Counted from the first letter of the stretch, positions 4,995-63,997 are shown. The stretch: DNA of 64,000 nucleotides from Deltaproteobacteria bacterium (GCA_013151235.1 JAADIO010000048.1:23559-87558); one strand, 5' to 3'. The notes: generated by a model from the letters alone, not told the origin. Numbers and translations are program-made.

Positions 4995-7004
4995 GTGAAC
5001 CGGTTCCGTATTGTCTCGAATTTTGTCCCCTGCGGGGACCAACCGGAAGCGATCCAGAAACTTTCCACCTGGATTCGTGAGGGGCGTCCCCATTCGGTAT
5101 TGCTCGGAGTGACCGGCTCGGGGAAGACCTATACCCTGGCGAAGGTGATCGAAGAGGTCGGCAAAACGACCCTGTTGATCGCTCCGAACAAGACTCTGGC
5201 CGCCCAGCTCTACAACGAACTGAAATCCTTTTTTCCCGAAAATGCCGTTGAGTATTTCGTCAGTTATTACGATTACTATCAGCCGGAGGCCTATCTTCCT
5301 TCAACGGATACCTATATCGAGAAGGATTCCTCCATCAACGATGAGATCGACAAACTGCGTCATTCCGCCACCCGGTCTCTCCTTGAGAGAAACGACGTGA
5401 TTATTGTTGCCTCCGTTTCGTGTATCTACGGTCTCGGGTCGCCCGAGGCCTACCATGGTATGTTGGTCTACCTGGAGGAGGGGTGCGAGACGGACCGTGA
5501 CGTTTTGCTGAAGAAGCTGGTGGAAATCCAGTACCGGCGTAACGAAATTGATTTCAAGCGGGGGACCTTTCGGGTGCGGGGCGACGTGGTGGAGATCCTG
5601 CCGGTTTATTCCGATACGGCCATCCGGGTGGAATTTTTCGGGGACGTGGTGGAGGCGATATCCGAGGTCGATTCCCTAACGGGGAAGCGGCTTCGTTCGA
5701 TTCCCAAGATCGCCCTCTATCCCGGGAGCCATTACGTGACTCCGAAGGAGCGGCTGGAAAAGGCCCGTGAGGCCATCCTGAAGGAATTGCGGGACCGGGT
5801 GACCGAATTGGAGCGGGAGAACAAGCTCGTGGAGGCCCAGCGGTTGGAGCAGCGGACACTCTTTGACTTGGAGATGATCCGCGAGGTCGGTTATTGCCAG
5901 GGGATCGAAAACTATTCCCGGCACCTCACGGGACGACTGCCGGGCCGGCCGCCGCCGACACTGATCGACTATCTTCCGAAGGATTCCCTTGTGATGATCG
6001 ATGAGAGTCATGTGACGGTTCCACAGTTGAACGGGATGTACCGCGGCGACCGGTCCCGGAAGGAGACCCTGGTGAATTTCGGATTCCGTCTTCCCTCGGC
6101 GTTTGATAATCGTCCGCTCCGTTTTGAAGAGTTTGCCGAACTGGTCCCGCAGACGGTCTATGTCTCAGCGACGCCGGGCCCGTTCGAACTGGAAAAGGCC
6201 GGGGAGCGGGTGGCGGAACAGATCATTCGGCCCACCGGACTGCTCGACCCGGAGATCATTGTCCGGCCTGTGGAGGGGCAGGTGGATGATCTGCTCCATG
6301 AAATTCGTGTACGGATCAAACGGTACGAGCGGGTCCTGGTGACCACGTTGACCAAACGGATGGCAGAGGATCTGACCGATTATTATTCCGATCTCGGGGT
6401 CAGGGTCCGGTATCTCCATTCCGATGTGGAGACGTTGGAACGGATGGAGATTCTCCGGAGTCTCCGTAAAGGAGAGTTTGATGTTCTCGTCGGGATTAAC
6501 CTGCTGCGAGAGGGGCTCGATCTTCCGGAGGTATCGCTGGTGGCCATCCTCGATGCGGACAAGGAAGGGTTTCTCCGTTCGGCGCGTTCCCTGATTCAGA
6601 CGTCGGGGCGGGCGGCCCGAAATGCCGGGGGGCAGGTTCTCTTTTACGCTGACCGGGTTACCGATTCGATGGCCCGGGCGATTGGAGAGACGGAACGGCG
6701 GCGGAAGATTCAGCAGGATTACAATGAGAGGATGGGGATTACGCCGAAGACCATTGAAAAAGAGATCCCCGCAAGTCTCGTTGAAATGTGTGAGGCCGAT
6801 TACGCAGGTGTCCCCCGGGTGGAGGAGGAGGGGGAAGAGTATCTGTCGGAAAAGGAACTGGCGGCAAAATTGGATATACTGGAAGAGGAGATGCTGAAGG
6901 CGGCCCGGGAGCTGGAGTTCGAACGGGCGGCGGAGTTACGGGATCAGCTGATTGCACTGAAGGACCGTCAGGTAGGGGTGAAGACGGCGGGCATTGGGAA
7001 ATAG
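4995..7004 (+). CDS. uvrB: Excinuclease ABC subunit B
   Basis: 669 aa. GDQPEAI, Walker [13 protein letters not shown] box, helicase C motifs and a C-terminal UVR domain ([14 protein letters not shown]). GTG start. Confidence 0.97.
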
Positions 7005-8919: not shown

Positions 8920-11303
8920 GTCGTGCCGGATTTTCCCATGAACCCGTGCTGCAAGGGGGGCTGCTTTTCCTGACGCTGCGTTTTGCCGTTTTTCTGCTGA
9001 TCGCACTTTCTGTTTCCCTGCCCTTCTTTGCGGAACGGCCTTTGGTTCAGTGGGGGGTCCTGAGCTATTTTGCCTTCTCCGAAATCCTGCTGCTCCTCCG
9101 GTCCAACCGGTGGACGCGGCGGAAGATCGCCATCGGGATCTATTTCCTCGACGTCTATGCCGTGACCTCCCTCATCCTGACGCAGGGACTTTCGGTCGTC
9201 TGGTATCTGACGATTCCCGTCTTCATGCTGGGGGTCAACCTCCTTTACAAGGGGAGACGCTCCTGGCTGTTGATCTCCCTGATTCCCGCGGTACTGATCC
9301 TTCTGCAACTCTTCCGGCAGGGCGGTCTTACCACCGGGGTGATCTGGGAGTATGGTGGTGTGGTTTTCCTCTTTTTCGTTTTTGAAGGGACCGTGCATGC
9401 CCTGGTCGGCCGTCTGGAATACCTGAATGCCCTCTGCCGGGGACAGCAGAAGGTTGTGCGGTGTATCATCGATGACGATTCCTCCGTCTCGCTGAAGGAG
9501 GGAATGCAAAAAATCCTCGAAAAGGAGGTCCCCTTCGGAGTGGATCTGCAGGTTTTCCTCTTTCGGGATCCCGCAGGGGACCTGCGCGGGCTGGAACGGC
9601 GTCGGGAGGGAGAGGTCAGCGAGGTTTGGATCCATCATGCCGGTTTGCCCTATTGGTTGGAGAAGGTGCCGGTCCGGGGGCGTTACCTGGAAAAGCTTCA
9701 ACGAGACGATCCCGGTGACGACTTCCGGAGTGCCCGGGATGTGCAAAGCCTCCTGATTCTTCCGATGCAGGTGGAAGCGAGGGAGGGGTTTCTCCTCTTC
9801 GGGCGGCGATCCCCCTCGGCCTTTTCAACGCTGGAACGGGAGAACCTGCTCCTCTATGGCGAAATGATCCGCCGGCGGCTGGTCCGGTCCGATGTGCAGA
9901 ACATTCCGTCTTGTATGGATGGAGAGGGGCGTGAACCCCGATTTTCCGCCGCTTCTCCTCCGGGTGAAAAAGACGAAAGGGAAGAAGAACTACGGGAACG
10001 GCTTGCACGTCTGAAACAGGAGAACGCCCGGCTGCAATCAGTCATCGACAATGAACTTCATTCGGAGACGCTGGAACTCAAGAAGGCGGCACTGGCCGTT
10101 CTCTCCCGGGAATCGGAGCAGGATCGAAAGGTTCTGGAGAAACTTGCCTCGGCGGAACTGAGCCAGGCCGTCTCCCATCTCTTTGACATGCACCTTGTGC
10201 TTGACCTGATCCTTGAAGTGATCTGCAAAAAACTCAAGGTTGAGAATGCCTCCATCATGCTGTTACGTGAGGAGAGCCGCGATCTGATTATCTCCGCCCA
10301 TCGGGGTTTGAAAGACGAAGTCGTCCGGGAGACCCGGCTGATGGTGGGGGAGGCGATTGCCGGCTACGTCGCGCAGAAGGGCGAACCGCTCCTGATCGAA
10401 GATGTCCGGAAGGATCCCCGCTTCGTTCCCTTCAGCCGGGAACGATACCGTTCCGGCACGTTGCTCAGTGTCCCGATCCTCGGCAAGGAAAAGGTTCTCG
10501 GTGTGATTAACCTTTCCGATCCGGCCCAGGACGGTCCCTTCCGGGAGCAGGACCTCGAAATCCTTCAGGCGATGTCCCGCCAGGCGGCTATTGTGATCGA
10601 AAATGACCGGATGTACCAGGAGTTCAAGAACGGCCGGTGGATTCGTGAGATCTATGAGGAAGAACTGTCGCAGCGAGTCTCGAAAAAGGTTTTTCAGGAA
10701 GGACAGGTGCTTGAGAAGGTAGCGGGCGAATATCCGGTGACCATTCTTTCCGTTCATCTTCATGAAGCCGGGAGCTCCGCGGCCGTGGACAGTCTGGAAA
10801 GAATCCGCCTGATCGAACAGTGTTTTCAGGATTGTCGTCGAATTCTTGTCCGGCGCCGGGGGGATGTCGCCGGAGAGACGGGCGCCGGGATGATCGGACT
10901 TTTCGGTCTGCCTTTTCCGGACGCGAAGGATGCCTGGCAGTCGGTTCTTGCCGCGGTGGATCTGCTGAAATATTTTGCCGGGAAAAGTTCGAAAACCGGG
11001 ACAGTGAGAGAAGAAGGTTTTGGGGTTTCCATCGGAATCTCCACGGGAAGGGTCCTTCTCCGGGAAAAGCAGGGAACGGTCCCCTATGCCGTTTTCGGAG
11101 AAACCTGGGAACGGGCCGTGACCCTGATGCATGCCGCCTCTCCGGGACAGATCCTGGTCGATGAGCCGACCCATGACCGGATTGAGGACGCCGTCAATGC
11201 CCTCCGCCTGGTTCTCCCCTACGGGATCAATAAACAGTTGACGGCCTTCGGGATCAAGGGGTTGAAAAAGGTGGTTGTTGCGGCGGAATCGGTTGAGATG
11301 TAG
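8916..11303 (+). CDS. Multi-pass membrane protein with GAF domain and degenerate class III cyclase-homology domain
   Basis: About 5-6 N-terminal TM helices, a coiled coil, a GAF-like block (IMLLREESRDLII...GVINLSD) and a C-terminal cyclase-like block (GMIGLFGLP...GISTGRVLL...AVFGETWERA). ATGA overlap with the uvrC stop. Confidence 0.7.
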   Translation: MSRAGFSHEPVLQGGLLFLTLRFAVFLLIALSVSLPFFAERPLVQWGVLSYFAFSEILLLLRSNRWTRRKIAIGIYFLDVYAVTSLILTQGLSVVWYLTIPVFMLGVNLLYKGRRSWLLISLIPAVLILLQLFRQGGLTTGVIWEYGGVVFLFFVFEGTVHALVGRLEYLNALCRGQQKVVRCIIDDDSSVSLKEGMQKILEKEVPFGVDLQVFLFRDPAGDLRGLERRREGEVSEVWIHHAGLPYWLEKVPVRGRYLEKLQRDDPGDDFRSARDVQSLLILPMQVEAREGFLLFGRRSPSAFSTLERENLLLYGEMIRRRLVRSDVQNIPSCMDGEGREPRFSAASPPGEKDEREEELRERLARLKQENARLQSVIDNELHSETLELKKAALAVLSRESEQDRKVLEKLASAELSQAVSHLFDMHLVLDLILEVICKKLKVENASIMLLREESRDLIISAHRGLKDEVVRETRLMVGEAIAGYVAQKGEPLLIEDVRKDPRFVPFSRERYRSGTLLSVPILGKEKVLGVINLSDPAQDGPFREQDLEILQAMSRQAAIVIENDRMYQEFKNGRWIREIYEEELSQRVSKKVFQEGQVLEKVAGEYPVTILSVHLHEAGSSAAVDSLERIRLIEQCFQDCRRILVRRRGDVAGETGAGMIGLFGLPFPDAKDAWQSVLAAVDLLKYFAGKSSKTGTVREEGFGVSIGISTGRVLLREKQGTVPYAVFGETWERAVTLMHAASPGQILVDEPTHDRIEDAVNALRLVLPYGINKQLTAFGIKGLKKVVVAAESVEM

Positions 11304-42230: not shown

Positions 42231-44021
42231 ATGACTCTGGAAAGCGAAAAAATAGAAGAGATGAATGATTATTTTGTCAAGATTGCCTACTTCAGTATGG
42301 AAGTAGGGTTGGAGGAGGATGTGCCTACCTACAGCGGGGGGCTGGGGATTCTGGCGGGGGATACGTTGAAATCCTGTGCGGATCTGCATCTTCCGGTCGT
42401 GGGAATGACCCTTCTGCAGGGAAAAGGTTATTTCATCCAGAAGCTGGACGCAAAGGGTAACCAGAGTGAGGAACCGGTGAACTGGGACCCCTCTTTTTCG
42501 ATGAAACAGTTGCCTTACAGAGTCAAGGTCCGGATCGGCGGCCGGGAGGTCGCAATCCAGGCCTGGCGCTACATGATCCGGGGGGAAACGGATGCCGCCG
42601 TTCCGGTCTATTTTTTAGACACCAATGTGGAAGACAATCATCCCGAGGATCGTGAGATTACCTCCTACCTTTATGGGGGGGACCATGCCTACCGGTTCAA
42701 ACAGGAAATCGTTCTGGGGATCGGCGGAGTACGGATGTTGCGGGCCATGGGATATGACCGCCTGACCACCTATCACATGAACGAAGGCCATGCGAGTCTT
42801 TTGACCCTTGAGCTGTTGCGTGAGAACGAAAAGTCCCCGGAAGCGGTCTGGTTTGAACAGGCGCGGTGGGACCCGGAGTCCGTCAAAGATCTCTGTGTTT
42901 TTACGACCCACACTCCGGTGCCGGCGGGGCATGACCGTTTTGAGAATGACCTGGTCAAGAAACTGCTCGGGGAGAAGAAGGAAAACCTGCAGGGGGAGGA
43001 GGACCCCTATCTCATTCACAAGATCCCCTTTGAGGTCGTCGATAATCTGAGCGGCAAGGGGAAATTCAATATGACACTTCTGGCGCTGAACCTGAGCCGC
43101 TATGCCAACGGGGTGGCCAAGAAGCATGGACAGGTGTCGAAAGAAATGTTTCCGGAATATGAGATCGATTCCATCACGAACGGTGTCCATGTACGGACCT
43201 GGATGTCAAAGGAGTTCCAGGCACTCATGGATAAGTATGTCCGGGGATGGAAGACCGACTCTTTCATGCTGCGCCAGGCCATGGGGATCCCTCCGGAGGA
43301 GGTCTGGACGGCCCATCAGCAGTGCAAGAAAAAACTCTTCGATTATATTCACCGGACGACCGGTGTCGATCTGGATCCGGAGGTGCTGACCATTGGTTTC
43401 GCTCGCCGGGCGGCCGCCTACAAACGGGGGGACTTGCTCTTCCGGGATATTAAACGGCTGAAAGAAATCCTGGAGAAGGCGGGGAAATTTCAGTTGGTTT
43501 ATGCCGGGAAGGCCCATCCCAGGGATGAACCGGGCAAGGCCCTGATTCGGAAAATCATTCAGCATAGTCATGAACTGGCCGACACGATTCCTATCGTCTA
43601 TCTGGAGAACTACGACTTTGCACTGGGAAGATTGTTGACCTCCGGCGTGGATGTCTGGCTTAACAACCCGAAACGCCCTCAGGAGGCCTCCGGGACCAGC
43701 GGGATGAAGGCGACCCTGAACGGAGTCATCAATTTCAGCGTACTCGACGGCTGGTGGATCGAAGGACATCGTGAAGGGATTACCGGCTGGTCGATCGGCC
43801 CGAGGCCGTCCAGCGTTCCACCGGGGGCCGATACGGATGCCCTGGATGTACAGGACCTTTATGAAAAACTGGAAGAGGTGATTTTGCCCACCTATTACCA
43901 CAAACGGGAAGACTGGATCGGGATCATGCTCAACGGGATCAGTCTGAACGGATCTTTCTTTAACACCAACCGGATGATGTTGCAGTATGTTTCCAGCGCC
44001 TACCTGAGAAGACTGGGCTGA
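42231..44021 (+). CDS. glgP: Alpha-glucan (glycogen/maltodextrin) phosphorylase, short GT35 type
   Basis: YFSMEVG...YSGGLGILAGD and EASGTSGMKATLNG (PLP lysine). Confidence 0.9.
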   Translation: MTLESEKIEEMNDYFVKIAYFSMEVGLEEDVPTYSGGLGILAGDTLKSCADLHLPVVGMTLLQGKGYFIQKLDAKGNQSEEPVNWDPSFSMKQLPYRVKVRIGGREVAIQAWRYMIRGETDAAVPVYFLDTNVEDNHPEDREITSYLYGGDHAYRFKQEIVLGIGGVRMLRAMGYDRLTTYHMNEGHASLLTLELLRENEKSPEAVWFEQARWDPESVKDLCVFTTHTPVPAGHDRFENDLVKKLLGEKKENLQGEEDPYLIHKIPFEVVDNLSGKGKFNMTLLALNLSRYANGVAKKHGQVSKEMFPEYEIDSITNGVHVRTWMSKEFQALMDKYVRGWKTDSFMLRQAMGIPPEEVWTAHQQCKKKLFDYIHRTTGVDLDPEVLTIGFARRAAAYKRGDLLFRDIKRLKEILEKAGKFQLVYAGKAHPRDEPGKALIRKIIQHSHELADTIPIVYLENYDFALGRLLTSGVDVWLNNPKRPQEASGTSGMKATLNGVINFSVLDGWWIEGHREGITGWSIGPRPSSVPPGADTDALDVQDLYEKLEEVILPTYYHKREDWIGIMLNGISLNGSFFNTNRMMLQYVSSAYLRRLG

Positions 44022-44036
44022 CCGGAGGAGGACCGT

Positions 44037-45089
44037 ATGAATTTTTCAGGCCGTTGTCTGGGGACCGGCATCGGCAGTCTCCCTTTTACCGATGTACAAA
44101 AGGCGTGTGCGATCGTCCGGGAGCATCTTCCCGAGATCCCTTTCTGGCCGCAGCTTCCGAAACTCGGTTTTCGGGAGCAGATGGTCCCGCAGTATTCCGA
44201 GGCCTTCCCCGGCATCGTCATCGACCTGGAGAGAGAAAAGATTTCCGTGGATTCCAATCGGGCGTTGGCGGAGCTGGAACGCTTCTATGAAAAGGAAATG
44301 GCGGGGGAGGCGGATCACTTCCGGCTCTCCCCGGACTATGCCGCAGGTTTGACCCCCTTTATCGAGGGGCTGCGGGAGGAACGACCGTCGGAGCTGATCT
44401 GTACCAAGGGGCATGTCACCGGTCCGGTAACCTTCGGATTCTCCGTAAAGGACGAAGAGGGGAGGGCGATCTTTTACGATCCCAACCTGCAGGATGCCGT
44501 CGTCCGCCTGATCGCCATGAAGGCGCTCTACCAGATTGAACGGCTCAGGGAATTCCATGTACCCACGATCATCTTTATGGATGAGCCCTATATGGCGGCC
44601 TTCGGGACCACGGGGATGAACGTCGGCCGGGAGGAGGTCGTGCAGTCTCTCAACGGAGTGGTGAAACGGATTGGTGATGCGGGCGGGATTGCCGGGGTTC
44701 ACTGCTGCGGAAATACCGACTGGTCCCTCCTTTTTGAAACGGATGTTGATATCGTAAATTTCGATGCCTATGATTTCATGGACCGGATGGCCCTCTACCC
44801 CGAAGCGGTCAAGGCCTTCTTGAACAGGGGGGGCAATCTTGCCTGGGGGATCGTGCCCACCTCTGCGGCCGTTCGGGAAGAGACGGCTGAATCCCTTGCA
44901 GGTCGGTTCCGGAATGGGTATGACAAACTGGTTTCTCTCGGTGTCGATGCCCGACGATTACGGACCCAATGTCTGGTGACGCCGGCCTGCGGATTGGGGA
45001 GCCTCTCCGAAGCGGATGCCCTCCGGGCCCTCGGCCTCGTCCGGGATCTTTCCCTGCATCTCCGGTCGGAGTTCGGATCGGCGGGGTAG
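44037..45089 (+). CDS. Short MetE-like / URO-D-like TIM-barrel protein (candidate core methionine synthase)
   Basis: 350 aa. VHCCGN and VTPACGLG resemble the zinc-ligand motifs of the cobalamin-independent methionine synthase C-terminal domain. Confidence 0.55.
   Translation: MNFSGRCLGTGIGSLPFTDVQKACAIVREHLPEIPFWPQLPKLGFREQMVPQYSEAFPGIVIDLEREKISVDSNRALAELERFYEKEMAGEADHFRLSPDYAAGLTPFIEGLREERPSELICTKGHVTGPVTFGFSVKDEEGRAIFYDPNLQDAVVRLIAMKALYQIERLREFHVPTIIFMDEPYMAAFGTTGMNVGREEVVQSLNGVVKRIGDAGGIAGVHCCGNTDWSLLFETDVDIVNFDAYDFMDRMALYPEAVKAFLNRGGNLAWGIVPTSAAVREETAESLAGRFRNGYDKLVSLGVDARRLRTQCLVTPACGLGSLSEADALRALGLVRDLSLHLRSEFGSAG
45043..45089 (+). repeat. Left copy of a 47-nt imperfect direct repeat (3' end of the MetE-like gene)
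   Basis: 38 of 47 nt identical to 47786-47832, including the first 22 nt. Both copies end in a stop codon. Confidence 0.85.
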
Positions 45090-45219
45090 GGGGGGGTATA
45101 AAGTCAAGGTCAAGAGCAATTCACCACGGAGCACACAGAGTTCGAGCGAGAGGTTGGCCTCCCCGCCGACGATTGAGAGCCCTTAACCATAGCGTGCACA
45201 CGGATTGCCTACGTGCTTA

Positions 45220-45492
45220 AAAATAGGGACAGCGACCATTATTATTGACAGCTTTTGGGAAATATGATACATCTTTTTCATGCCAAGAATAGCAAGAGCC
45301 GCAGCCCAGGGATATCCACATCATGTTACACAGCGAGGCAACGACCGTCAGACGGTATTTGAGGATGATGAAGATTTCCTTGTGGCAGCGATGCATTTAT
45401 TCGGAAGATAGGAAAGACGGTTGGCCGAGACTTAATGGCGAGGGGGAGGGGTAGACCACGAAAAGGCAAATAATGGTCGCTGTCCCTATTTT
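45220..45492. mobile_element. REP pair flanking a RAYT gene remnant
   Basis: Perfect 24-bp inverted repeat AAAATAGGGACAGCGACCATTATT (45220-45243 versus 45469-45492). Confidence 0.75.
45280..45411 (+). pseudogene. Truncated Y1 (IS200-like/RAYT) transposase, N-terminal 43 codons only
   Basis: MPRIARAAAQGYPHHVTQRGNDRQTVFEDDEDF then a stop. It parallels the N-terminus of the full RAYT at 46793. Confidence 0.6.
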
Positions 45493-45599
45493 ATGCCCCT
45501 GTACGTTGGGAGACTGAGGTATTAGCAAACTGTGCTGCCCCAGGCGTTACAGCGGGGTAACGGAAAGTGCCTTCTTGAAAATCTATAACCGGAGAGATT

Positions 45600-46559
45600 A
45601 TGAAAAATAATTTGAAGTCATTGAGCCATCAGTTGACCGATCAAATCAATGCACAACGAGGGGGCGGCGGAAAATGGCCGTCGCATTTCGATTATACGGT
45701 TGACCTTGAGAACCGCCGGATCACCCTGGATGCTCGCAAAAAAATCAATAAGTCGGGTTACCGCTGCTTAGACTCCTGGGGTATGGCTCTTTTTCACTAT
45801 GTATGCAATGACCAGCATCAAGAGATCAGGGAAATCCGGTTTTGTATCAACAAGAATGGATCAGCACGGGAACCGAATACCGAGGCCTTCAAACGAAGGG
45901 TTTCGTTTCTTTCCATCAATAACGAGGAGATTGATTTCAGGGTCATTCATAATCACCGTCAGATCGGTCTCTACTCCAGGAAAGAGCTTTTTGAGAGGCC
46001 GGCGAATGAAAAGATACACACTGTCTTGAACAAGAGAGGAGATGATGACAGGGGAGAGCGGATTGAAAAAGATTTCCAGACTTTCTTGTTCGGGAAAGGT
46101 CTCAAAACCAGAACGAATGACCGGCTTGCAATATTGGGGGAGCATTTCTTCCTGTTAAAGAAGAAAAAGTATGGGGTTCTGAGGGAGTTCCCGACGGGCG
46201 TATTCCTGGACAGCGTTTCCAAGCTCAACATGATCATGCCCACTGAATTTGTCGATATCGTGACGCTCAACCGCAGAGGATATTTGTCTGTGATCGAATT
46301 GAAATTGGACGATGTGAAATTGGAAGTCATGTCGCAACTGTTGGACTATGCGCTCTATTTCGCTTGTTACAGAAAGGAAATTCTGAAGCTCCTGGGAAAA
46401 TATTCAGAGATCAGACCGAAGAGAAAGATGATCATGTGCTATGTGGTAAACAATCGGTTCCATCCACGGTTCGATGACGTCTTTCGCTATTACAGCACCA
46501 AAAACAAATCCTACAGCTTCAGAATCTTTAAGGTCGTATTGGGAGACACATGTGAGTGA
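45600..46559 (+). CDS. Hypothetical protein with C-terminal PD-(D/E)xK (NucS/RecB-like) nuclease motif
   Basis: 319 aa. About 40-45% GC by hand count. EFVDIV-x11-SVIELK-x11-QLLDY (D219, E233, K235). The N-terminal 150 aa are unassigned. Confidence 0.55.
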   Translation: MKNNLKSLSHQLTDQINAQRGGGGKWPSHFDYTVDLENRRITLDARKKINKSGYRCLDSWGMALFHYVCNDQHQEIREIRFCINKNGSAREPNTEAFKRRVSFLSINNEEIDFRVIHNHRQIGLYSRKELFERPANEKIHTVLNKRGDDDRGERIEKDFQTFLFGKGLKTRTNDRLAILGEHFFLLKKKKYGVLREFPTGVFLDSVSKLNMIMPTEFVDIVTLNRRGYLSVIELKLDDVKLEVMSQLLDYALYFACYRKEILKLLGKYSEIRPKRKMIMCYVVNNRFHPRFDDVFRYYSTKNKSYSFRIFKVVLGDTCE

Positions 46560-46761
46560 TGCAAAGATCAAAAACGACTATGCCGAATACATAGCCCGGT
46601 TGACTCGGCAATTGTGGGCCTATCAGCAAAGCCATTTCCCCCGGTGGGAAGAGTATCTTGAAAAGCCCGAAGATGGTACAGGCAGGCCGCCTGTGTTTCT
46701 CAAGGAGAAAGCCGAGGGGAACGGAACCTCTTGGGGTCAGACTTTGTTGTTTTTATATTGA
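46552..46761 (+). CDS. Short ORF, probably the 5' remnant of a gene truncated by the REP/RAYT element
   Basis: GTG overlaps the upstream stop (GTGAGTGA). The last codons (WGQTLLFLY-stop) are encoded by the left REP. Confidence 0.3.
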   Translation: MSDAKIKNDYAEYIARLTRQLWAYQQSHFPRWEEYLEKPEDGTGRPPVFLKEKAEGNGTSWGQTLLFLY

Positions 46762-47777
46762 CACCGGCATACGAATCTGTTATCGATTTACAATGGCCAG
46801 GAAACCTCGGGTACAATATCAGGGAGCTTTCTATCATGTTATTGCCAGGGGCAATCAGCGTCAAAAGGTCTTCCTTGATGACGAAGATTACCAGCAGTAC
46901 CGGAACCGCCTGATCACCTACCAGAAACGCTATTGCTGTACGTTCTATGCTTACGTCCTTATGTCAAACCATGTTCATCTGTTGATTGAACAGGGGGAAA
47001 CAGACCTATCCAAAATCATGCAAGGGCTTCAGCAAAGTTACACCATGTACTTCAACAAAAAGTACGGCAAGACAGGTCATCTCTTTCAAGGAAGATACAA
47101 AGCCATCATCTGTGACAGGGATGCCTATCTGTTAGAACTGATCCGGTATATACATCTGAATCCTGTTCGAGCGGGAATTACAAAGTTGCCGGACGACTAT
47201 ATCTGGAGTAGCCACCATGCATATCTCTCAGGGAGGTCCTCGTTTTGGCTTGAAGTAGAAATGCCGCTGGCCTGTTTGGCGAAGAGCAGAAAGAAAGCGG
47301 TTTCTTTATATAAGGATTTTATCAATGTTGCAGTAAACGATGGGTATAGAGAAGACCTCTATGAAGTCAAAGAACAGCGTTATCTTGGAGAAGACAAATT
47401 TGTAGAAAAGTTAGAGAAGCGGTTTGTCAGGGGAAAACCAATACGTTTTCCTGTTGCTCTGGACATGGATGCACTTGTTGTGAAGATCGGAAGGTCTTTC
47501 AAGGTGCCCGTTGGGAGGATAATGGACCACACTCGAAGCAGAGATGCTGCATTGTGCAGAGCTGTGACGGCCTATGTTGCGAAGGAAGTGGGAAGCATTA
47601 CTTTGGGGGAGGTGGCACGCTACTTTGCTCGGGACCCGGTGTCCATAAGTATCGGGGTGAGAAAGCTCAGAGAGAGGTTAGAAGATGATGCTGAACTTGC
47701 TGCACAAATGAATAGGATAGAGAAGTCTTTAAGAAAAGGGCGGCGAGTAAAATATAAAATTAGCAAAGTCTGACCCC
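46733..47777 (+). mobile_element. RAYT gene flanked by inverted REP sequences
   Basis: GGGGTCAGACTTTG (46733-46746) and CAAAGTCTGACCCC (47764-47777). The inverted repeat extends to about 27 bp. Confidence 0.78.
46793..47773 (+). CDS. REP-associated tyrosine transposase (IS200/Y1-like) with C-terminal DnaA-C-like HTH
   Basis: YHVIARGNQRQKVF, MSNHVHLLI (HUH) and YIHLNPVRAG. The C-terminus TLGEVARYFARDPVSISIGVRKL resembles the DnaA domain IV HTH. Confidence 0.8.
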   Translation: MARKPRVQYQGAFYHVIARGNQRQKVFLDDEDYQQYRNRLITYQKRYCCTFYAYVLMSNHVHLLIEQGETDLSKIMQGLQQSYTMYFNKKYGKTGHLFQGRYKAIICDRDAYLLELIRYIHLNPVRAGITKLPDDYIWSSHHAYLSGRSSFWLEVEMPLACLAKSRKKAVSLYKDFINVAVNDGYREDLYEVKEQRYLGEDKFVEKLEKRFVRGKPIRFPVALDMDALVVKIGRSFKVPVGRIMDHTRSRDAALCRAVTAYVAKEVGSITLGEVARYFARDPVSISIGVRKLRERLEDDAELAAQMNRIEKSLRKGRRVKYKISKV

Positions 47778-47785
47778 AGGACTTG

Positions 47786-47832
47786 GGGATCTTTCCCTGC
47801 ATCTCCGTGCGGAGTTCAGCCCGGCGGATTGA
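47786..47832 (+). repeat. Right copy of the 47-nt direct repeat
   Basis: Encodes GDLSLHLRAEFSPAD-stop, versus RDLSLHLRSEFGSAG-stop in the left copy. Confidence 0.85.
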
Positions 47833-47882
47833 TGCCGCACCCTGAATCTTCATCTTCATTTTTTTTCCAGAACGAAATATTC

Positions 47883-47911
47883 TTGACATCCGTTTTGGAA
47901 CATGGTCTAAT
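47883..47911 (+). promoter_or_regulatory. Sigma-70-like promoter (TTGACA-N17-TCTAAT) upstream of the csp leader
   Basis: Perfect -35 at 47883-47888; weaker -10 at 47906-47911. Confidence 0.4.
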
Positions 47912-47962
47912 GCCGTGCAAGTAGAGGGTTGTGCAGACTTATCATCGTGAATTGGTAACATG

Positions 47963-47993
47963 AAAGCCGCCCGATTATACGGGTGGTTTTTTT
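47963..47993 (+). terminator. Intrinsic-terminator-like hairpin within the csp 5' region
   Basis: GCCGCCCG-ATTATA-CGGGTGGT followed by seven T. It lies between the predicted promoter and the ATG at 48059. Confidence 0.55.
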
Positions 47994-48058
47994 CCCACTG
48001 AACGGTTGAGGTTGCACATGGATTTACGGTTTGGATCCTGAGAGGAAAAGGAGAAGAG

Positions 48059-48259
48059 ATGTCAGAAGGAACAGTAAAGTGGTTTAACGACGGCAAGGGG
48101 TATGGTTTCATTGAACAGGAAGATGGTCCTGATGTGTTTGTCCATTTTTCCGCCATCCAGGAAGAGGGGTTCAAAACTCTGGAAGAAGGTCAGCGGGTGA
48201 GTTTTGACGTGAGCGAAGGACAGAAAGGGCCCCAGGCCTCGAATGTCGTCCGCCTGTAA
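48059..48259 (+). CDS. cspA: Cold-shock domain protein
   Basis: 66 aa. [15 protein letters not shown] (RNP1) and VFVHFSAI (RNP2). Confidence 0.95.
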
Positions 48260-48281
48260 ATTATTCCATCATTGTCAATCC

Positions 48282-48321
48282 AAAAGCTCCATGAGTGATC
48301 ATGGAGCTTTTTTTGTTTTTT
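48282..48321 (+). terminator. Rho-independent terminator of csp
   Basis: Perfect 9-bp stem GCTCCATGA/TCATGGAGC, 4-nt loop, then TTTTTTTGTTTTTT. Confidence 0.85.
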
Positions 48322-57875: not shown

Positions 57876-57972
57876 TAAGCATTCCCCGATTCCGAGCTTT
57901 TCTGTATTTCAACATTTCTGAATAATCTTTATCTAACGGTAAGATACGGACCGGCACCTCTGAATGGTAAAA

Positions 57973-57988
57973 TGGCATGCTCCTTGCT
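57973..57988 (+). promoter_or_regulatory. Candidate sigma-54 (-24/-12) promoter of the minor-pilin operon
   Basis: TGGCATGCTCCTTGCT fits TGGCAC-N5-TTGCW. It lies 38 nt upstream of the ATG at 58026. Confidence 0.65.
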
Positions 57989-58025
57989 ACCGTATGGAGG
58001 TGTGTGGAGAAAAAGGAGGTCCATT

Positions 58026-58565
58026 ATGAAGAGGTCTGAGCAAGAGGGATACACTCTAATTGAACTTGTTATCACCTTGTCAATTGTTGCGCTGACGCTG
58101 CTTTTTTCGGCACCTTCCATTGCCGATTGGGCACCTTATTACCGAATGAAGGGAGATGCTACAACGATTGCAGGGATGCTGACCAATGCCCGTTTTGAGG
58201 CGGTGAAGCGAGGACAGAATGTAACCGTTACCTTCGATCCCTCGGCAGAAACGGTAACGGTCTCTGCGGGAGGAACGACTCTGAATACCTACACACTCAG
58301 CCAATCCGTTGATTTCGGAATTAATCAGGTAATAGAAAAAGACGACTTAAATGCCAGTGGTCATCCGCCTACGAAAAAGATTACCTTCGCTGGTAGTAGT
58401 GTTGTCTTTGCTTCCAACGGTGCTGCAACGCCGGCGGGCGAACTCTATTTGATGTTTGACCCGGCGGCCACTGTAAACAAACAGTATTTTTTCGGGGTTG
58501 CCGTAGAAGCGAGTGGACAAGTGACATATTCTCGCTGGAATGAATCAGGCGCCGCCTGGGATTAG
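58026..58565 (+). CDS. GspH/FimT-like minor (pseudo)pilin
   Basis: Type IV prepilin leader MKRSEQEG/YTLIELV plus a hydrophobic helix. ATG after AAGGAGG. Confidence 0.75.
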   Translation: MKRSEQEGYTLIELVITLSIVALTLLFSAPSIADWAPYYRMKGDATTIAGMLTNARFEAVKRGQNVTVTFDPSAETVTVSAGGTTLNTYTLSQSVDFGINQVIEKDDLNASGHPPTKKITFAGSSVVFASNGAATPAGELYLMFDPAATVNKQYFFGVAVEASGQVTYSRWNESGAAWD

Positions 58566-58575
58566 GAGGAAAGAA

Positions 58576-59031
58576 ATGTATCGCAAAAGTATGAAGTCAA
58601 ACGCCGGATTTACGTTGATTGAGGTCATGGTAGCCATGGTTGTAATGGCCTACGGCATTCTGGCTGTCATGTCGATGTCGGTGGCGGCGATCCGGGGAAA
58701 CTCCACGGCGGATCATGTGACCCAGGTCACGATTCTATCTGATGAAGTGATCGAAATGATCCGGGCGAATGTCGATAACATCTCTGCCTACAACGGGATT
58801 GATACCAGTAATGTCAATACCCGCCCCTCCATTGATGCTACAGCCGGTGCCGACTATGACACGATTGTAAGCCGGATCTCGGATTTGGGGCTTCCTTCCG
58901 GTAAATGCTCAATTGAGATACAAAATAATACCCCTACTGCCGGGATTAGTACAGCACAGGTGACTATTGCCTGGAGCCGGACCGGAAACCACTCCATGAC
59001 TTTCACGAGGGAGTTTGAAGGGTTACACTAA
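58576..59031 (+). CDS. pilV: PilV-like minor pilin
   Basis: Leader ...SNAG/FTLIEVMVAMVV. Confidence 0.72.
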   Translation: MYRKSMKSNAGFTLIEVMVAMVVMAYGILAVMSMSVAAIRGNSTADHVTQVTILSDEVIEMIRANVDNISAYNGIDTSNVNTRPSIDATAGADYDTIVSRISDLGLPSGKCSIEIQNNTPTAGISTAQVTIAWSRTGNHSMTFTREFEGLH

Positions 59032-59046
59032 TTGGAGGAATCAGGC

Positions 59047-59679
59047 ATGTACAGCAACCAAAAGGGTTTTACCCTGATCGAAATCATGGTCTCTCTTGTG
59101 GTGACATTGGTCATCGTGGCGGGGGCCTATGCCGTCTTTGCCATACAGAACAAGTCTGCCAATGTCCAGAATGAGGTGGCGACGATGCAGCAGAACGGCC
59201 GGATTGCCATGGATGTACTTGTGGAGGAAATTCGGAGGGGGGCTTACAACAATCCGGCAAACCCCGCCGGTGCAACTATTACTGTCGATGCTTCCGGCAG
59301 TATGATTACCATTCAGAAGGATGTCAATGATGACGGAGTGATTAATGATACGTTAGCCAGTTCTGCGGATGATGAGGAGTGGATTGTCCTGCAGGTGAAC
59401 GGCAATAACCAATTGACGAAGCAGATCCTGCGTAAATCCGATGGATCGGATGTACAGACCCTGATTTTGGCGGATAATATATATTCCTTGTCTTTTTCTC
59501 CGGCCGGGGTCACCGATCCGTCCTCTGTCGACATTTCCCTGACGGTTCGGACGAAGCATGAGGATCCGAATTGGACTGACACAAACAAGGGTGTCAATCT
59601 TTCGGGGTCTGTATCGGATGGTTTGGCACGGATTCGAAATTATCAGAAAACCGTCTGGGTCCGGAATCTGAATCTCTAA
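59047..59679 (+). CDS. pilW: PilW-like minor pilin
   Basis: Leader MYSNQKG/FTLIEIMVSLVV. Confidence 0.72.
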   Translation: MYSNQKGFTLIEIMVSLVVTLVIVAGAYAVFAIQNKSANVQNEVATMQQNGRIAMDVLVEEIRRGAYNNPANPAGATITVDASGSMITIQKDVNDDGVINDTLASSADDEEWIVLQVNGNNQLTKQILRKSDGSDVQTLILADNIYSLSFSPAGVTDPSSVDISLTVRTKHEDPNWTDTNKGVNLSGSVSDGLARIRNYQKTVWVRNLNL

Positions 59680-59698
59680 ACGGCAAAGGAGAACAATC

Positions 59699-60331
59699 AT
59701 GTATCTGAATCGGGCGGGAAATCAGAAAGGGATGGCCCTGATTGTTGCATTGTTGCTTTTGGTGGCACTTTCGGCTGTTGCATTAAGTTTGATGTTTTCA
59801 TCCACTTTTGAGAATACCATTGCCGCAAATGATAAAAAAAACACGATCGCTTTCCAGAATGCTGAAACGGGGATCGAGATGGCCAGAAACGTCCTGTTGA
59901 ATTTTCGGGATCGGGATGAAGGATTCACGAAGCTTTTGTCCATTATTCCAAGCAGTGCTGATCCCGTAGTGCTTGATTTAGAAAATGTAGGAATCAATTC
60001 CGGCGATCCCGTTTATAGCGTTGGTGCGAATGTTTATAATCTTGATACCACTCGTTACACTGTGACTATCTGGGATGACAGCAACGATCCCCTGGAAACC
60101 GATAATAACGACCGTGTGGACAGCAATTTTTCTGTTATGGTCCGTTCCGTTGGGAAGGATCCCACGGGGAATGCGGCGAAGACGATTACCACGAAACTTC
60201 GCTATGGGGATGCACGGGAATTTGCACAGGGGAAACAGGACGCAAACTCTGGAAGCAGCAAGGACCAGAAAGTAGAAACCGAAGCAGGCAATGGAAGGAG
60301 TACCAGTACTTTTGATCCCTCGACCACGTAA
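59699..60331 (+). CDS. pilX: PilX-like minor pilin
   Basis: NQKGMALIVALLLLVALSAV N-terminus typical of PilX. Conserved position before pilY1. Confidence 0.68.
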   Translation: MYLNRAGNQKGMALIVALLLLVALSAVALSLMFSSTFENTIAANDKKNTIAFQNAETGIEMARNVLLNFRDRDEGFTKLLSIIPSSADPVVLDLENVGINSGDPVYSVGANVYNLDTTRYTVTIWDDSNDPLETDNNDRVDSNFSVMVRSVGKDPTGNAAKTITTKLRYGDAREFAQGKQDANSGSSKDQKVETEAGNGRSTSTFDPSTT

Positions 60332-60433
60332 AACGATTTCCCGGCTTACCCGGGCCTGTGGTGGTATGGTGACGCCCGGTTGAAGCGGGAGCCTGATCTC
60401 CCGATCCAAGGGGAAGAACTAAGGAGGTTCATT

Positions 60434-63400
60434 ATGAAAAAGATTGAGATCTTAATTGCTGTGATATCAGCGCTATTTGTTTTTGCCGGCAGTGCCACAG
60501 CGGATCAGCGGACCTTTCCAGCCGGTTCCCTGATTATTCCGATGAACAGCAGCTACCAGGGAGCGACGGACCACGGAATCTTCGAAGCTTACGGTCTGAT
60601 GTATGCTCTCCTGGACCACAAGGATACCGCCGGAGATCCCGACCCGATTCCGGTTTTCTGGTGCATAAATCCGGATAAGACTTCTATTACGGACACGGAT
60701 TTTTCTATTAGTACCGATACGGGGGTTGATCCGGCATCGGAATATGACCACGCCGGAAGTACGAATCCAATCAACACGGGGATTTACACCAACACCGACG
60801 GAGCGCTCCAGATCGACTATTTCGGCGGGCCCTTTGTGATCGATGCTGCCTATGCCGATGCGGCCAAGACTATAATCGATAATTGGAAAAACGTGAATAT
60901 CCATGTCGCGAATGCTCCCTTCACAGCCGATATCGGACGGGTCTTAGACGGCGTTCCGCCAAAGATTGCTCTCTTGAACGACACAGAGTCCCATACCAAC
61001 GGCAATGCTGTGACTATTCTTGCCGGTTATCTTGAAATTGCCGGAATCGGTAGCGGTGTGTATGACGTGGTAACGCCAGATGAAGTTGGTGGCATCGCTA
61101 CGACTGTGGATGGTGTTTCCGTGCCGGCGGGTAACGGGATTCTGGAAGAAAAGGATGCTGACGGGAAATATGTCTACGATCTCCTGTGGGCGCCCCACTG
61201 GACGGCCTACAAAGATTACGGTGCAAATGCAAAAAAAATCATCAGCAAGATTGGCGACTTTCTCGATCGGGGTGGCGCACTTTTTGCCGAATGTGCCTCC
61301 ATTATGAATTTCGAATACCACCCGAACGATGCAGGAAGCTACAATGTCGGTCCCTGGCTGACCACGAACGATATCTCTCACAACGGCGGTACAAACAACG
61401 CCGCCGACATCATTGTTGCCGACCCGACGATCCCCTTCACCCAGACGGGGGATTTTGCTTTCGGACCCGAAGGGGGGCACCTTCACAATTGGGAGCCGTA
61501 CAATACGTCCAATAGCGGTTATTTTGACGCCTCGGACTTCTCCTACGGTGTGCCTGTTGCGCCGCCGGATAGTGATTACAACGCAACAGTGCAGCGTTTA
61601 ATTTATGATACGACCGGTTGGGACTACTATGTTGCCGGCTACAAGGATGGTGATGACAGCAAGGGGTTCATCAGTTACCTGGGAGGGCATACATACGTTG
61701 ATTGCACAGGAGGTGGCCCTGGAGGTCCTAAAGGCGGTCCCGGCGGAGGTGCGGTTCAAAATGCTCATGAGTTTAAATTCGAATTCAAGGACAAGGTGGA
61801 TGATCCCCATGCATCCTTTACGATCCATGTCGACTATAACGACGGAGGAACTTCTGAATCGACGGAGATCACATTTTCGAAGGGAGATGATTTTGCAACC
61901 GGTGATCCCCTGGAAATCGATTTGTCGAGCATGAAAATCAAGGACAAAACGATTGAAAAAGTTTTTTTCAACAACAAAGGAACGAACACCATTACACTCA
62001 CTCATTTTAAGATTACCTTCACAAAGGGAGGCAAATTAAAGAAAGTCGAGGACAAAGTAGGGAAAGATACAACAAACCTCCTGGATTCGCATGACGGGAT
62101 TCCGTCTGTAACATCTTTTGACACCAACGACGTTCTTGCTGCATCCAGTGGGGCCGGCACAGGCGGAGGTACACCGCTCAGTTCCTGTACTTATAAGAAT
62201 GTTGCCGGGATTCGCTACGTTCTGAATACCGTATTGGACCTTCAGGCCTACGTGAATTACAAGGAATTTATGAAGTCCTCTCCGGTTATGGATCTTGCCG
62301 ACTTGGATGGTAACGGTGAATATAATGATTTGATAGCCTATTATGGGTCTTTTGATTATCCTGGTTATACCGGCCACCTGAGAGCATTGAAGGTTAAAGA
62401 CGATGGCAGTTTTACCGAGCTATGGGATGCTGCAAACAAGATTCCGTCTAACCGGACTCTTTATACGGCGATTGACGACAGCGATGGGGACAGCCGGGTC
62501 GACGATCGGATTAACCTGGAGGCATCGGCCACCTTTCTTGCCCTAAACGATTCTGCGACCGGACAGACCATCAACGAGATTTTGAACGTGACACCTTCTG
62601 ACGGCACCGATACGGATGAAATCTCCTTGCTCAATAATGTGATCTCCAAAGATTTGGGCGGAATTATCCATTCCTCACCGGCTGTCGTCGGTCCGAGTCC
62701 CTTTGTGGACCCTGATCGTCCTATCGTAATCTATGCTGGGTCCGCCGACGGGATGCTCCATGCCTTTACGGGCTCAACCGGTGCGGAGCGGTGGGCTTTC
62801 CTTCCGCATAATTTATTGGGCAAGCTCTATGGCGCTTCGCTTCTCCAGGATACGGATATGCCGACGGCCGTGGTTGATGCCTCGCCGACGGTAGCTGATA
62901 TGATGGTGGACCGTATCGGGAGTACATTTGACGGAAACAAGCAGCGCCGAACAATTCTCCTTTCTGCGGAAGGGAGCGGAAATCACTATGTTTTTGCCAT
63001 GGATATCAGCGATCCTGATGATCCACAGCCCTGGTGGGAGGCCACCGCCACGAACATGGGGTATGCCTACCGGACCTCCATGGGGCATATCAAGGTCTGT
63101 GATGTAAATGACAATTGCGAAGTCAAGGCGGCAGCCTTTGTTTCCACCAATTATCAGGCGGGAACGGGAATCCAGGTCTACGCCTTTGATCTGGAGACAG
63201 GGGATGAATTCTGGTCTTTCGGGCAGAGCTATGGATCGACAAGCAACGAGATCCCTGATGCCCCGGTCCTCGTTGACAAAGACGGGGACGGGGTCATCGA
63301 TTCTGTTCTGGCCGCGGACATGGAAGGTCGGCTTTGGCAGTTGGATGCTGCTACGGGCAAGTCACTCTATGGAACAACGGAATCACCGCAGCCGGTCTAT

Positions 63401-63997
63401 CAGGTAAATGTCGGTGGGACCACGACCGGTTATCCCATTGGTTCCTCTCCGGCGGTTTATGTCTGTGACGGTGGTCATGTCCTCGTATTCTTCGGAACCG
63501 GTGGTGCTGATTTTGCTTCTGACAGCAATTCCGGGCATATCATCGGGATCGATATCACCAATGGTGCCGTTACGTCCGGTGGTACCGGTGAATTGTTCAA
63601 CTATACCCTGGATGTTGGTGAAAAGCTTTATGCCTCTCCGATCGTGACTAAAAACGCTGTCATTTTCGGTACGGCTTTTGGTGACCGGGAGACGACGGAC
63701 CCAAACTCAGATATTTCGGATAGTCAGTCCGGGAAAATCCACATTGTGAAGCCTGTAAGCGGAGACATCTGTTACGCCAGTGGATGTGGAGGTAACGGTC
63801 AATCAGACTATAATGACTCCAGTCATGAGGTTGTTTCCGATGTGAGCGCCAAGGTGACTGGAAGCTATGCGGAAGGAAACCAAGTGATCCTCGGGACTAT
63901 GGATGGCAAAATCATCCGGTTTGGCAAGGATAAAGAGGATGGGAACAATCTGGCTCCGAGCGAGCGGGTGAATATCGAATTTTGGCGTGATTTCTGA
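60434..63997 (+). CDS. pilY1: PilY1-like pilus tip adhesin with large divergent N-terminal region
   Basis: Signal peptide. C-terminal propeller blocks (IHSSPAVVG, GSADGMLHAF..GAERWAFLP, YVFAMDISDP). Calcium-loop-like DKDGDGVID. ATG after AAGGAGG. Confidence 0.8.
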   Translation: MKKIEILIAVISALFVFAGSATADQRTFPAGSLIIPMNSSYQGATDHGIFEAYGLMYALLDHKDTAGDPDPIPVFWCINPDKTSITDTDFSISTDTGVDPASEYDHAGSTNPINTGIYTNTDGALQIDYFGGPFVIDAAYADAAKTIIDNWKNVNIHVANAPFTADIGRVLDGVPPKIALLNDTESHTNGNAVTILAGYLEIAGIGSGVYDVVTPDEVGGIATTVDGVSVPAGNGILEEKDADGKYVYDLLWAPHWTAYKDYGANAKKIISKIGDFLDRGGALFAECASIMNFEYHPNDAGSYNVGPWLTTNDISHNGGTNNAADIIVADPTIPFTQTGDFAFGPEGGHLHNWEPYNTSNSGYFDASDFSYGVPVAPPDSDYNATVQRLIYDTTGWDYYVAGYKDGDDSKGFISYLGGHTYVDCTGGGPGGPKGGPGGGAVQNAHEFKFEFKDKVDDPHASFTIHVDYNDGGTSESTEITFSKGDDFATGDPLEIDLSSMKIKDKTIEKVFFNNKGTNTITLTHFKITFTKGGKLKKVEDKVGKDTTNLLDSHDGIPSVTSFDTNDVLAASSGAGTGGGTPLSSCTYKNVAGIRYVLNTVLDLQAYVNYKEFMKSSPVMDLADLDGNGEYNDLIAYYGSFDYPGYTGHLRALKVKDDGSFTELWDAANKIPSNRTLYTAIDDSDGDSRVDDRINLEASATFLALNDSATGQTINEILNVTPSDGTDTDEISLLNNVISKDLGGIIHSSPAVVGPSPFVDPDRPIVIYAGSADGMLHAFTGSTGAERWAFLPHNLLGKLYGASLLQDTDMPTAVVDASPTVADMMVDRIGSTFDGNKQRRTILLSAEGSGNHYVFAMDISDPDDPQPWWEATATNMGYAYRTSMGHIKVCDVNDNCEVKAAAFVSTNYQAGTGIQVYAFDLETGDEFWSFGQSYGSTSNEIPDAPVLVDKDGDGVIDSVLAADMEGRLWQLDAATGKSLYGTTESPQPVYQVNVGGTTTGYPIGSSPAVYVCDGGHVLVFFGTGGADFASDSNSGHIIGIDITNGAVTSGGTGELFNYTLDVGEKLYASPIVTKNAVIFGTAFGDRETTDPNSDISDSQSGKIHIVKPVSGDICYASGCGGNGQSDYNDSSHEVVSDVSAKVTGSYAEGNQVILGTMDGKIIRFGKDKEDGNNLAPSERVNIEFWRDF

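Follow-up and report, generated by a model that had tools for sequence, protein, structure and literature searches.

A low-GC insertion of mosaic origin in the last codons of a MetE-like gene, bounded by two copies of the gene tail

How a bacterial gene comes to possess its own 3' end twice is the question raised by a locus in GCA_013151235.1 (JAADIO010000048.1:23559-87558), a stretch of 64,000 nucleotides that is referred to here as the window. The closest genome bins point to an uncultured member of the Nitrospirota as its host. The gene concerned, called MetE-like below, is followed at a distance of 2.7 kb by a second copy of its last codons. A first-pass annotation had interpreted the interval (the insert) as an element that integrated into the 3' end of the gene and brought a replacement end. 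Related loci (prefix L) were aligned with the window. The alignments show a chromosome of the L002 type, with a type-2 gene tail and the csp gene directly after it, that has gained 2.7 kb of lower-GC foreign DNA inside the last 15 codons of the MetE-like gene.

The two copies of the repeat lie in the same orientation at 45043-45089 and 47786-47832. They are identical at 38/47 positions including the first 22, as the first-pass annotation had reported, and the first mismatch is at position 23. In codon register the copies begin 1 base earlier, at 45042 and 47785, and are translated as RDLSLHLRSEFGSAG-stop (copy 1) and GDLSLHLRAEFSPAD-stop (copy 2). All of the mismatches (9/9) fall after position 22, where they occupy 9 of the next 25 nt. 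Under a model of uniform divergence this placement has a probability of P = 0.0015, and any identical run of at least 22 nt a probability of P = 0.015. The 22-mer core was found twice in the 64 kb with up to 3 mismatches allowed, where shuffled sequences gave an expectation of 0. In 1.57 Mb of related loci it was confined to the tails of MetE-like genes, besides two chance matches with 4 mismatches. The annotation would have been set aside had the 47-mer been a multi-copy genomic repeat unrelated to this gene. A search for further copies returned no such repeat in the window or the 1.57 Mb, and a dispersed repeat was ruled out, with two copies in the window and occurrences in related loci at gene tails only. 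Among 156 related loci tested for a tail duplication at the same gene, the window alone has one. An apparent second case in L157 (Omnitrophota; 4470-4565 / 9710-9738), a 29-nt match 5.1 kb apart, was rejected as a dispersed repeat, GTAACAGTTCAGCGTTCAGAAGTAAATCAG...GTCATTC, that is read through by an over-extended open reading frame (ORF).

The 2,696 nt between the copies have a GC content of 46.4%, whereas the window as a whole has 54.3% and the flanking DNA 54.6-55.1%. The insert is AT-richer than its surroundings, as had been noted; the earlier figures of 38-48% against 55-60% were approximately correct but overstated the contrast. The windowed GC and tetranucleotide calculations that had been proposed as a check gave the same picture: the insert includes the lowest-GC 2.7-kb stretch of the window and ranks 1/614 windows in tetranucleotide deviation.

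The MetE-like label is taken from the source names of the 5538 homologues (methionine synthase II, cobalamin-independent); the protein had no match in Pfam or NCBIfam. The gene follows a phosphorylase gene (42231-44021) in the window and in all close relatives, and the order in the window is phosphorylase, MetE-like gene, insert, csp, znuA, ABC ATPase and permease. An empty site, which the first-pass annotation had suggested seeking in relatives, was found in two lineages (L003/L004/L005/L087, 84% amino-acid identity; L006/L088, 83%), in which the gene order is the same and the MetE-like gene and csp are separated by just 270-340 nt. Between copy 2 and csp the window aligns collinearly with the corresponding part of these empty sites, from gene tail to csp: the core is followed by a variable spacer and then by a strongly conserved csp promoter and 5' untranslated region (5'UTR).

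The closest relatives, L001 (from JGI 3300013233) and L002, are short contigs with 87% protein identity. Copy 2 together with the following 24 nt was 82% identical to the functional tail of L002 over 74 nt, and deletion of 1 nt near 47825-47828 gives copy 2 the frame ...AEFSPA[I/V]DAAP-stop, a 354-aa form, the corresponding end in L002 being ...AEFGLLEDAAR-stop. The tail of copy 1 and its 3' flank match L001 instead (L001:1755-1834, 86% identity over 80 nt), L002 being only 35% identical there. Against four relatives the core has 5, 1, 5 and 5 mismatches and the next 25 nt have 3, 10, 15 and 15. Where the core ends, L002-like sequence gives way to L001-like sequence, the 25 nt beyond it showing 3 differences from L001 and 10 from L002. 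Each tail allele is found on its own in a relative, so the two copies did not diverge in place. Because copy 2 matches the tail of L002 and is collinear with the empty sites, it is the stranded native tail of a 354-aa form, and the gene now uses an imported allelic tail. The reverse polarity, with copy 2 foreign and copy 1 native, was ruled out by the same collinearity of copy 2 with the empty-site interval. The layout proposed at first, a 3'-end insertion bringing a replacement end, therefore stood, with copy 2 as the native tail and copy 1 as a different allele. The coordinates of the features are collected in Table 1.

Table 1. Positions of the features at the MetE-like locus, counted from the first letter of the window
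Feature	Position	Strand	Remark
MetE-like gene, 350 aa, ending in the imported type-1 tail	44037..45089	+	ORF; 5538 homologues
Copy 1 of the 22-nt core	45043..45064	+	candidate crossover core; 1 difference from L002, 5 from L001
Type-1 tail (last 8 codons and stop, to 45089) and about 55 nt of 3' flank	45065..45143	+	common to L001
Internally deleted TIRtron, 273 nt	45220..45492	+	perfect 24-nt TIRs 45220-45243 / 45469-45492
Nuclease module fragment: intact ORF319 (45600-46559) and first 57 codons of REase-ARP gene (46552-46722)	45524..46723	+	
Complete TIRtron, 31-nt TIRs 46729-46759 / 47751-47781	46729..47781	+	around TIRYT gene 46793-47773, 326 aa
ACTTG, 5 unassigned nt between TIRtron right end and copy 2	47781..47785	+	read from sequence
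Copy 2: core (47786-47807) and stranded native type-2 tail	47786..47845	+	match to L002 tail
csp promoter region, cspA-thermoregulator-like 5'UTR and csp gene (48059-48259)	47882..48259	+	native, undisturbed by the insertion

The extreme C-terminus of the MetE-like family varies in sequence and length and csp retains its own promoter and 5'UTR, so the tail swap was probably neutral and the insertion probably has little functional cost. The csp region is strongly conserved with L003, L006 and L087, and the CSD domain scored 107.9 bits. The csp leader (47923-48314) scored 64.8 bits against the Rfam cspA thermoregulator (RF01766), under the gathering score of 78, and is conserved in Nitrospirota relatives. 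Upstream of the repeat, the MetE-like gene is nearer to L001 in the region of ~44300-44700 (84-96% against 73-88% identity) and nearer to L002 in that of ~44660-45064 (79-97% against 72-86%). A gene composed in this way indicates, on the strength of these alignments, frequent homologous exchange among these Nitrospirota lineages.

The insert itself is not one element but a mosaic, in which four or more pieces have histories of their own: the nuclease module, the transposase unit and the replacement tail are each seen in other contexts (L167; L168-L170; L001). The idea of a 3'-end insertion was thus kept from the first-pass annotation, and that of a single element was not. Its description of the contents fared in the same way: a nuclease-like gene, no integrase and two transposase modules (one complete, one a fragment) are present, but the modules are TIRtrons, bounded by terminal inverted repeats, and not elements of the classical, hairpin-bounded REP/RAYT type (repetitive extragenic palindromes and REP-associated tyrosine transposases). 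From left to right, the first piece (45065-45219) consists of the type-1 tail and a flank bearing two copies of TTMACCAYRGNGNRCACRG, and is followed by the deleted TIRtron. The nuclease module fragment is 87% identical in nucleotide sequence to L167:640-1842. In L167, where ORF319 is likewise intact, the second gene of the module (PF22558 REase-ARP, 61.5 bits) has a length of 273 aa or more, and an unrelated tetratricopeptide repeat (TPR) gene lies upstream of the module; no trace of the rest of the REase-ARP gene was found elsewhere in the window. ORF319 has a PD-(D/E)XK-like D..ELK motif and weak PADLOC matches to PDC-S11, and its homologues sit in defence-type islands among restriction, Abi and ARPP-type genes.

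TIRtrons were defined as Y1 transposase (TIRYT) genes flanked by terminal inverted repeats (TIRs) that share GGGGWSAS (Di Nocera 2013; PMC3733652). The arms of the complete TIRtron are 87% complementary and begin with GGGGTCAG at 46733, the complement ending at 47777. The TIRYT protein matched Pfam Y1_Tnp with 63.4 bits (cut-off 23) and NF047646 REP_Tyr_transpos with 83.5 bits (cut-off 80); the IS200 equivalog model gave 22.3 bits, under its cut-off of 55. Its HVH (HUH) motif and the catalytic Tyr in YIHLNPV align with those of E. coli TnpA-REP (4ER8). At the C-terminus Bac_DnaA_C scored 26.7 bits (E = 5.7e-6), under the Pfam cut-off of 31.5 and taken as a real though sub-threshold helix-turn-helix match; DnaA equivalog models matched residues 223-315 and most close homologues carry the PF08299 mark. 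Proteins bearing DnaA_C form RAYT subclass 2.1.2 (Quentin 2018; PMC6006769). The start codon is likely the ATG at 46793, since the homologues are 326 aa. The public transposase call is 371 aa, from a TTG at 46658, and reads through both the last part of the REase-ARP fragment and the left TIR.

The complete unit is also present in L168, L169 (a relative whose nuo genes match those of the window) and L170, at 76-82% nucleotide identity, with homology bounded by the TIRs and with different neighbours. It is a discrete relocatable unit, as the same TIR-bounded unit occurs in these three other contexts. The copy in the window is flanked by sequences of unrelated origin, with the REase-ARP gene to its left and the MetE-like tail to its right. 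Its right end bounds the insert and is separated from copy 2 by 2-5 nt. The ACTTG at this junction together with the next Gs gives CTTGGGG, which is identical to 7 nt at the left TIR junction (46730-46736); in the alignment with L002 the native sequence may start already at 47783. The deleted TIRtron encloses a 33-codon N-terminal Y1 transposase fragment (45280-45378), which shares 55% identity with residues 1-33 of the transposase in the complete TIRtron, and its repeat contains AGGGACAG, a 7/8 fit to GGGGWSAS. No further copy of the repeat of the deleted TIRtron, of that of the complete TIRtron or of the transposase was found in the 64 kb. The TIRs and junctions had no significant hairpin, no GTAG-tagged REP hairpins flank the gene, and the name RAYT/REP modules was replaced by TIRtrons. 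The flanks of the four TIRtron units had no common target motif. In L169, ACAAACCTGGGGTC is present twice before the left TIR (5370-5415); in L168, GCAGGGTCTGGG is present twice on the left (1690-1735) and an array of CTGACCCTCATAACC-like units follows the right TIR (2750-2850). These TIR-terminal tandem duplications may be footprints of repeated cutting and rejoining.

For the origin of the insert, a single Campbell-type reciprocal crossover between the chromosome and a circular DNA, within the 22-nt identity, is tentatively regarded as the most likely route. On the circle, the 22-nt core would have been followed by the type-1 tail, ~130 nt of flank, the cargo and a TIRtron, in this order. 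The product would then have the native gene body, the core and the imported tail on its left, and the circle end, the core and the native tail on its right. The recombinase could have been an integrase, either lost or acting in trans, in which case the insert would be a decayed att island resembling a cis-mobilisable element (CIME), or RecA could have acted on the short identity. One TIRtron would have decayed to 273 nt, and the two-gene nuclease module would have been cut after 57 codons of gene 2 at the left end of the complete TIRtron, in separate events. Crossover with a circle is supported by the duplication in one step, by the exact identity of the core against 9/25 differing positions after it, and by the allele switch at the end of the core. 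The direct repeat is made of a gene 3' end and has an identical core, which is a feature of site-specific or CIME-like elements. CIMEs that are flanked by att sites, measure 1.2-13 kb, lie in the 3' ends of protein genes and have no recombination genes are documented and common (PMC7563491).

Several observations weigh against this route. When the better conservation of the core among relatives is corrected for, by a rough correction of our own and not by a tool, the probability of the mismatch clustering rises to P ~0.05. Under an integrase model the adjacency of the TIRtron end and copy 2 is a coincidence. The substantial ORFs of 45090-47785 contained no integrase or remnant of one, and ORFs and repeats fill nearly all of this interval, leaving no room for one. 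No integrative element of this specificity was found 3' of the gene in the 156 loci, among which the contigs of L001 and L002 stop 276-815 nt past the gene. Identity between the window and L001 is ~85-87%, even across the gene 3' end, the tail and the next 55 nt, and the imported tail looks, on alignment, like an ordinary allele of a sister lineage. Searches against phage, plasmid and viral contigs gave no match to the insert, the type-1 junction or the core, and Rfam and tRNA scans gave no tRNA or tmRNA target, the sole match being the csp 5'UTR. The second-lowest-GC region of the window (57972-63997, with a dip at ~57.9-60.4 kb) was considered as the source of a trans-acting integrase and rejected, as it is a pilin cluster and not a mobile island. 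It encodes type IV pilus minor pilins (GspH/FimT-like, two genes with N-terminal methylation motifs, PilX) and PilY1.

Recombination with linear DNA of a sister lineage, with no integrative element, ranks nearly as likely as the circle crossover, and is to be read as possible rather than probable. The donor tail would arrive and the recipient tail would be retained. One variant (a) is homology-facilitated illegitimate recombination, in which homology within the MetE-like gene would serve as the left anchor. The right join would be made at a GGG(G) microhomology between the sequence beside the right end of the donor TIRtron (CTTGGGG) and the recipient sequence ...GTYC/GGGATC (the slash marking the join). 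In the other (b), a TIRtron enters the recipient tail first, and a donor carrying the gene, the type-1 tail, the island and the same TIRtron then recombines with it by crossovers in the gene and in the TIRtron. Neither variant requires an integrase, and no integrase-bearing relative was found among the related loci. The fine-scale mosaic of L001-like and L002-like stretches in the MetE-like gene speaks for frequent exchange, and the type-1 tail behaves as a normal allele, with the same divergence from L001 as the gene as a whole. The clade is variable downstream of the gene, where L001 has REPs and an antitoxin gene and L002 an insert of ~229 nt. TIRtron flanks from unrelated contexts are expected if two copies recombined or if the end served as a partner in the junction. 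G-rich sequence and close spacing (2-5 nt) mark the right junction, and the same TIRtron family is present at other loci in relatives. On the other hand, the exact 22/22 identity of the core and the switch of alleles at its end must be ascribed to coincidence or to later gene conversion, and variant (b) requires an intermediate with a truncated gene, neither this nor the donor arrangement having been found in related loci.

It is improbable that the TIRYT protein itself mobilised the insert. By this account two cuts were made by the Y1 HUH enzyme, one at its normal right end and one in a donor MetE-like gene, at a site standing in for the left end, where GGGATC resembles the GGGGTC that starts the TIR. 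A single-stranded circle of tail, cargo and TIRtron then reinserted at the same sequence in the recipient gene, much as IS200/IS605 elements go back in beside the sequence that had flanked them on the left. In favour of this, the TIRYT gene is undamaged and encodes both the HUH motif and the catalytic Tyr, and the whole insert is bounded on the right by the TIRtron end, at 2-5 nt from copy 2. CTTGGGG is found at the left TIR junction and the copy 2 junction alike, and the tandem duplications at TIR ends in L168 and L169 suggest repeated cutting and joining. However, mobility of TIRYT and TIRs was proposed for testing in PMC3733652 and PMC6006769, and TIRtron transposition is reported in neither. 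The core does not fit GGGGWSAS, the contexts of the left TIR and of the core are weakly similar (~9/19 by eye), and neither a target motif common to the flanks of the four units nor significant hairpins at the TIRs and junctions were seen. If true, this route would be the first natural footprint of TIRtron/RAYT activity transducing flanking genes and targeting a gene 3' end.

A chimera of the metagenome assembly, joining strains at the shared 22-mer, is very improbable. Related strains do share samples (L002, L005 and L167 are all from JGI sample 3300023444), but 22 nt is short compared with the usual final assembly k-mers. Since a chimera at the 22-mer would place the gene body to the left of copy 2, and not the TIRtron end and ACTTG, the junction 47781-47786 must exist in a real molecule. 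Least probable of all is a local tandem duplication of the tail with divergence in place and later insertions between the copies, which would give a direct repeat of the same length and orientation, but was excluded because the divergent 25 nt of copy 1 match L001 and those of copy 2 match L002, each allele standing alone in its relative, and because the first 22 nt have no mismatch whereas the remainder has many.

Other sequences have gathered 3' of the MetE-like gene. The motif TTMACCAYRGNGNRCACRG is present in the window at 45120-45138 and 45183-45201 (+). Just 3' of the gene there are two copies in the window, two in L001 (1811-1829, 1867-1885) and one in L002 (2234-2252); elsewhere there were two unrelated matches in the distant locus L153, and the motif was absent from the rest of the 64 kb and from the empty-site loci. 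It could be a candidate recombinase arm site or a regulatory site, and is often preceded by AAGGTCAAGAGC. In the sister lineage L001 this site holds different accessory cargo 3' of the type-1 tail (L001:1900-2594), a pair of REP hairpins with the GTAG tag (GTAGCGCCGGGGTTGATCCCCGGCG, GTAGCACCGGGGTTTACCCCCGGCG) and a gene for a PhdYeFM antitoxin; true GTAG hairpins were seen in this relative only. The insert of ~229 nt in L002 (2123-2398) lies right after the stop codon within a short ATCCTGTTS tandem repeat, and carries the TTMACCAYRGNGNRCACRG motif and a solo TIR-like GCGCTGTCCCTAC followed by CCCCTGCAAGGGGAG. This GCGCTGTCCCTAC/CCCCTGCAAGGGGAG stretch resembles window positions 45475-45515, the right end of the deleted TIRtron and the sequence beyond it. 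A 13-nt exact repeat of part of the tail, CTCCGGGAGGAAT, is found in L003 (11127-11139) and also in L004, L005 and L087, 74 nt past the stop and just 5' of the csp -35 element, within conserved sequence; in these empty sites it is probably due to chance, and could be an old scar. In distant relatives (67-70% identity) there was no integrase beside the gene; its end overlaps the next ORF downstream, which has a GASGFLG dinucleotide-binding motif at its start.

The locus can be described as a clean and completely delimited insertion scar of a familiar kind, for which one can identify the empty site as well as both tails, the native one left stranded and the allelic one brought in. It lies at a variable spot 3' of the MetE-like gene that gathers TIRtrons, REPs, toxin-antitoxin genes and defence-type nucleases. 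Every component is of a described kind: two TIRtrons, of which one is decayed, the remnant of a defence-type nuclease and a direct repeat of a gene tail. For the mechanism we infer one of two ordinary routes, circle crossover or linear recombination. The wider value is limited, since decayed islands flanked by duplicated gene tails are a familiar finding; for specialists there is a lead in the position of the TIRtron end, exactly where the duplicated tail begins to be joined.

Among known systems, the classical REP/RAYT arrangement (REPtron, REPIN) differs from the present one in its palindromic GTAG REP hairpins, which are dispersed in many copies and do not flank the RAYT gene here, and neither repeat recurs in the 64 kb. 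The peel-and-paste elements of IS200/IS605 belong to the same superfamily as the TIRYT protein, and a circle joined right to left would produce the layout seen here, provided that a surrogate left end were used. In IS200/IS605 the hairpins are subterminal, the target (5' of the left end) is fixed at 4-5 nt and no duplication is made, and none of these features was seen here. Homology-facilitated illegitimate recombination, which takes place in naturally transformable bacteria, likewise combines a homologous anchor with a short G-rich microhomology junction and places foreign DNA beside a common gene. It is usually described with deletion of recipient DNA and not with a retained duplicated segment, whereas the duplicated segment is retained in the window.

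The complete unit has the Y1 and DnaA_C domain pair, the HUH motif and Tyr, TIRs beginning with GGGGTCAG and no REP hairpins, as TIRtrons do, and the shorter element is a deleted relative. It differs from the TIRtrons of PMC3733652 and PMC6006769, in which the situation found here is not described: one end of the unit bounds a larger insertion by the duplicated tail, and the flanks are unrelated.

The remaining comparison is with CIMEs and with those ICEs (integrative and conjugative elements) and IMEs (integrative and mobilisable elements) that occupy protein-gene 3' ends in streptococci (fda, rpsI, rpmG; PMC7563491). The present insert differs from these in that no parent ICE, IME or phage of this specificity was found and the replacement tail looks like that of a sister lineage; it is moreover a patchwork with a TIRtron at its right edge, in an uncultured Nitrospirota host. 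Its size is within the range of 1.2-13 kb, its cargo is of the accessory or defence type and it has no recombination genes. Replacement 3' ends are also carried by phage 21 and e14 in icd. As in the streptococcal elements, the repeat at the MetE-like locus is made of the 3' end of the target gene, and the gene is kept intact by the tail that the insert carries.

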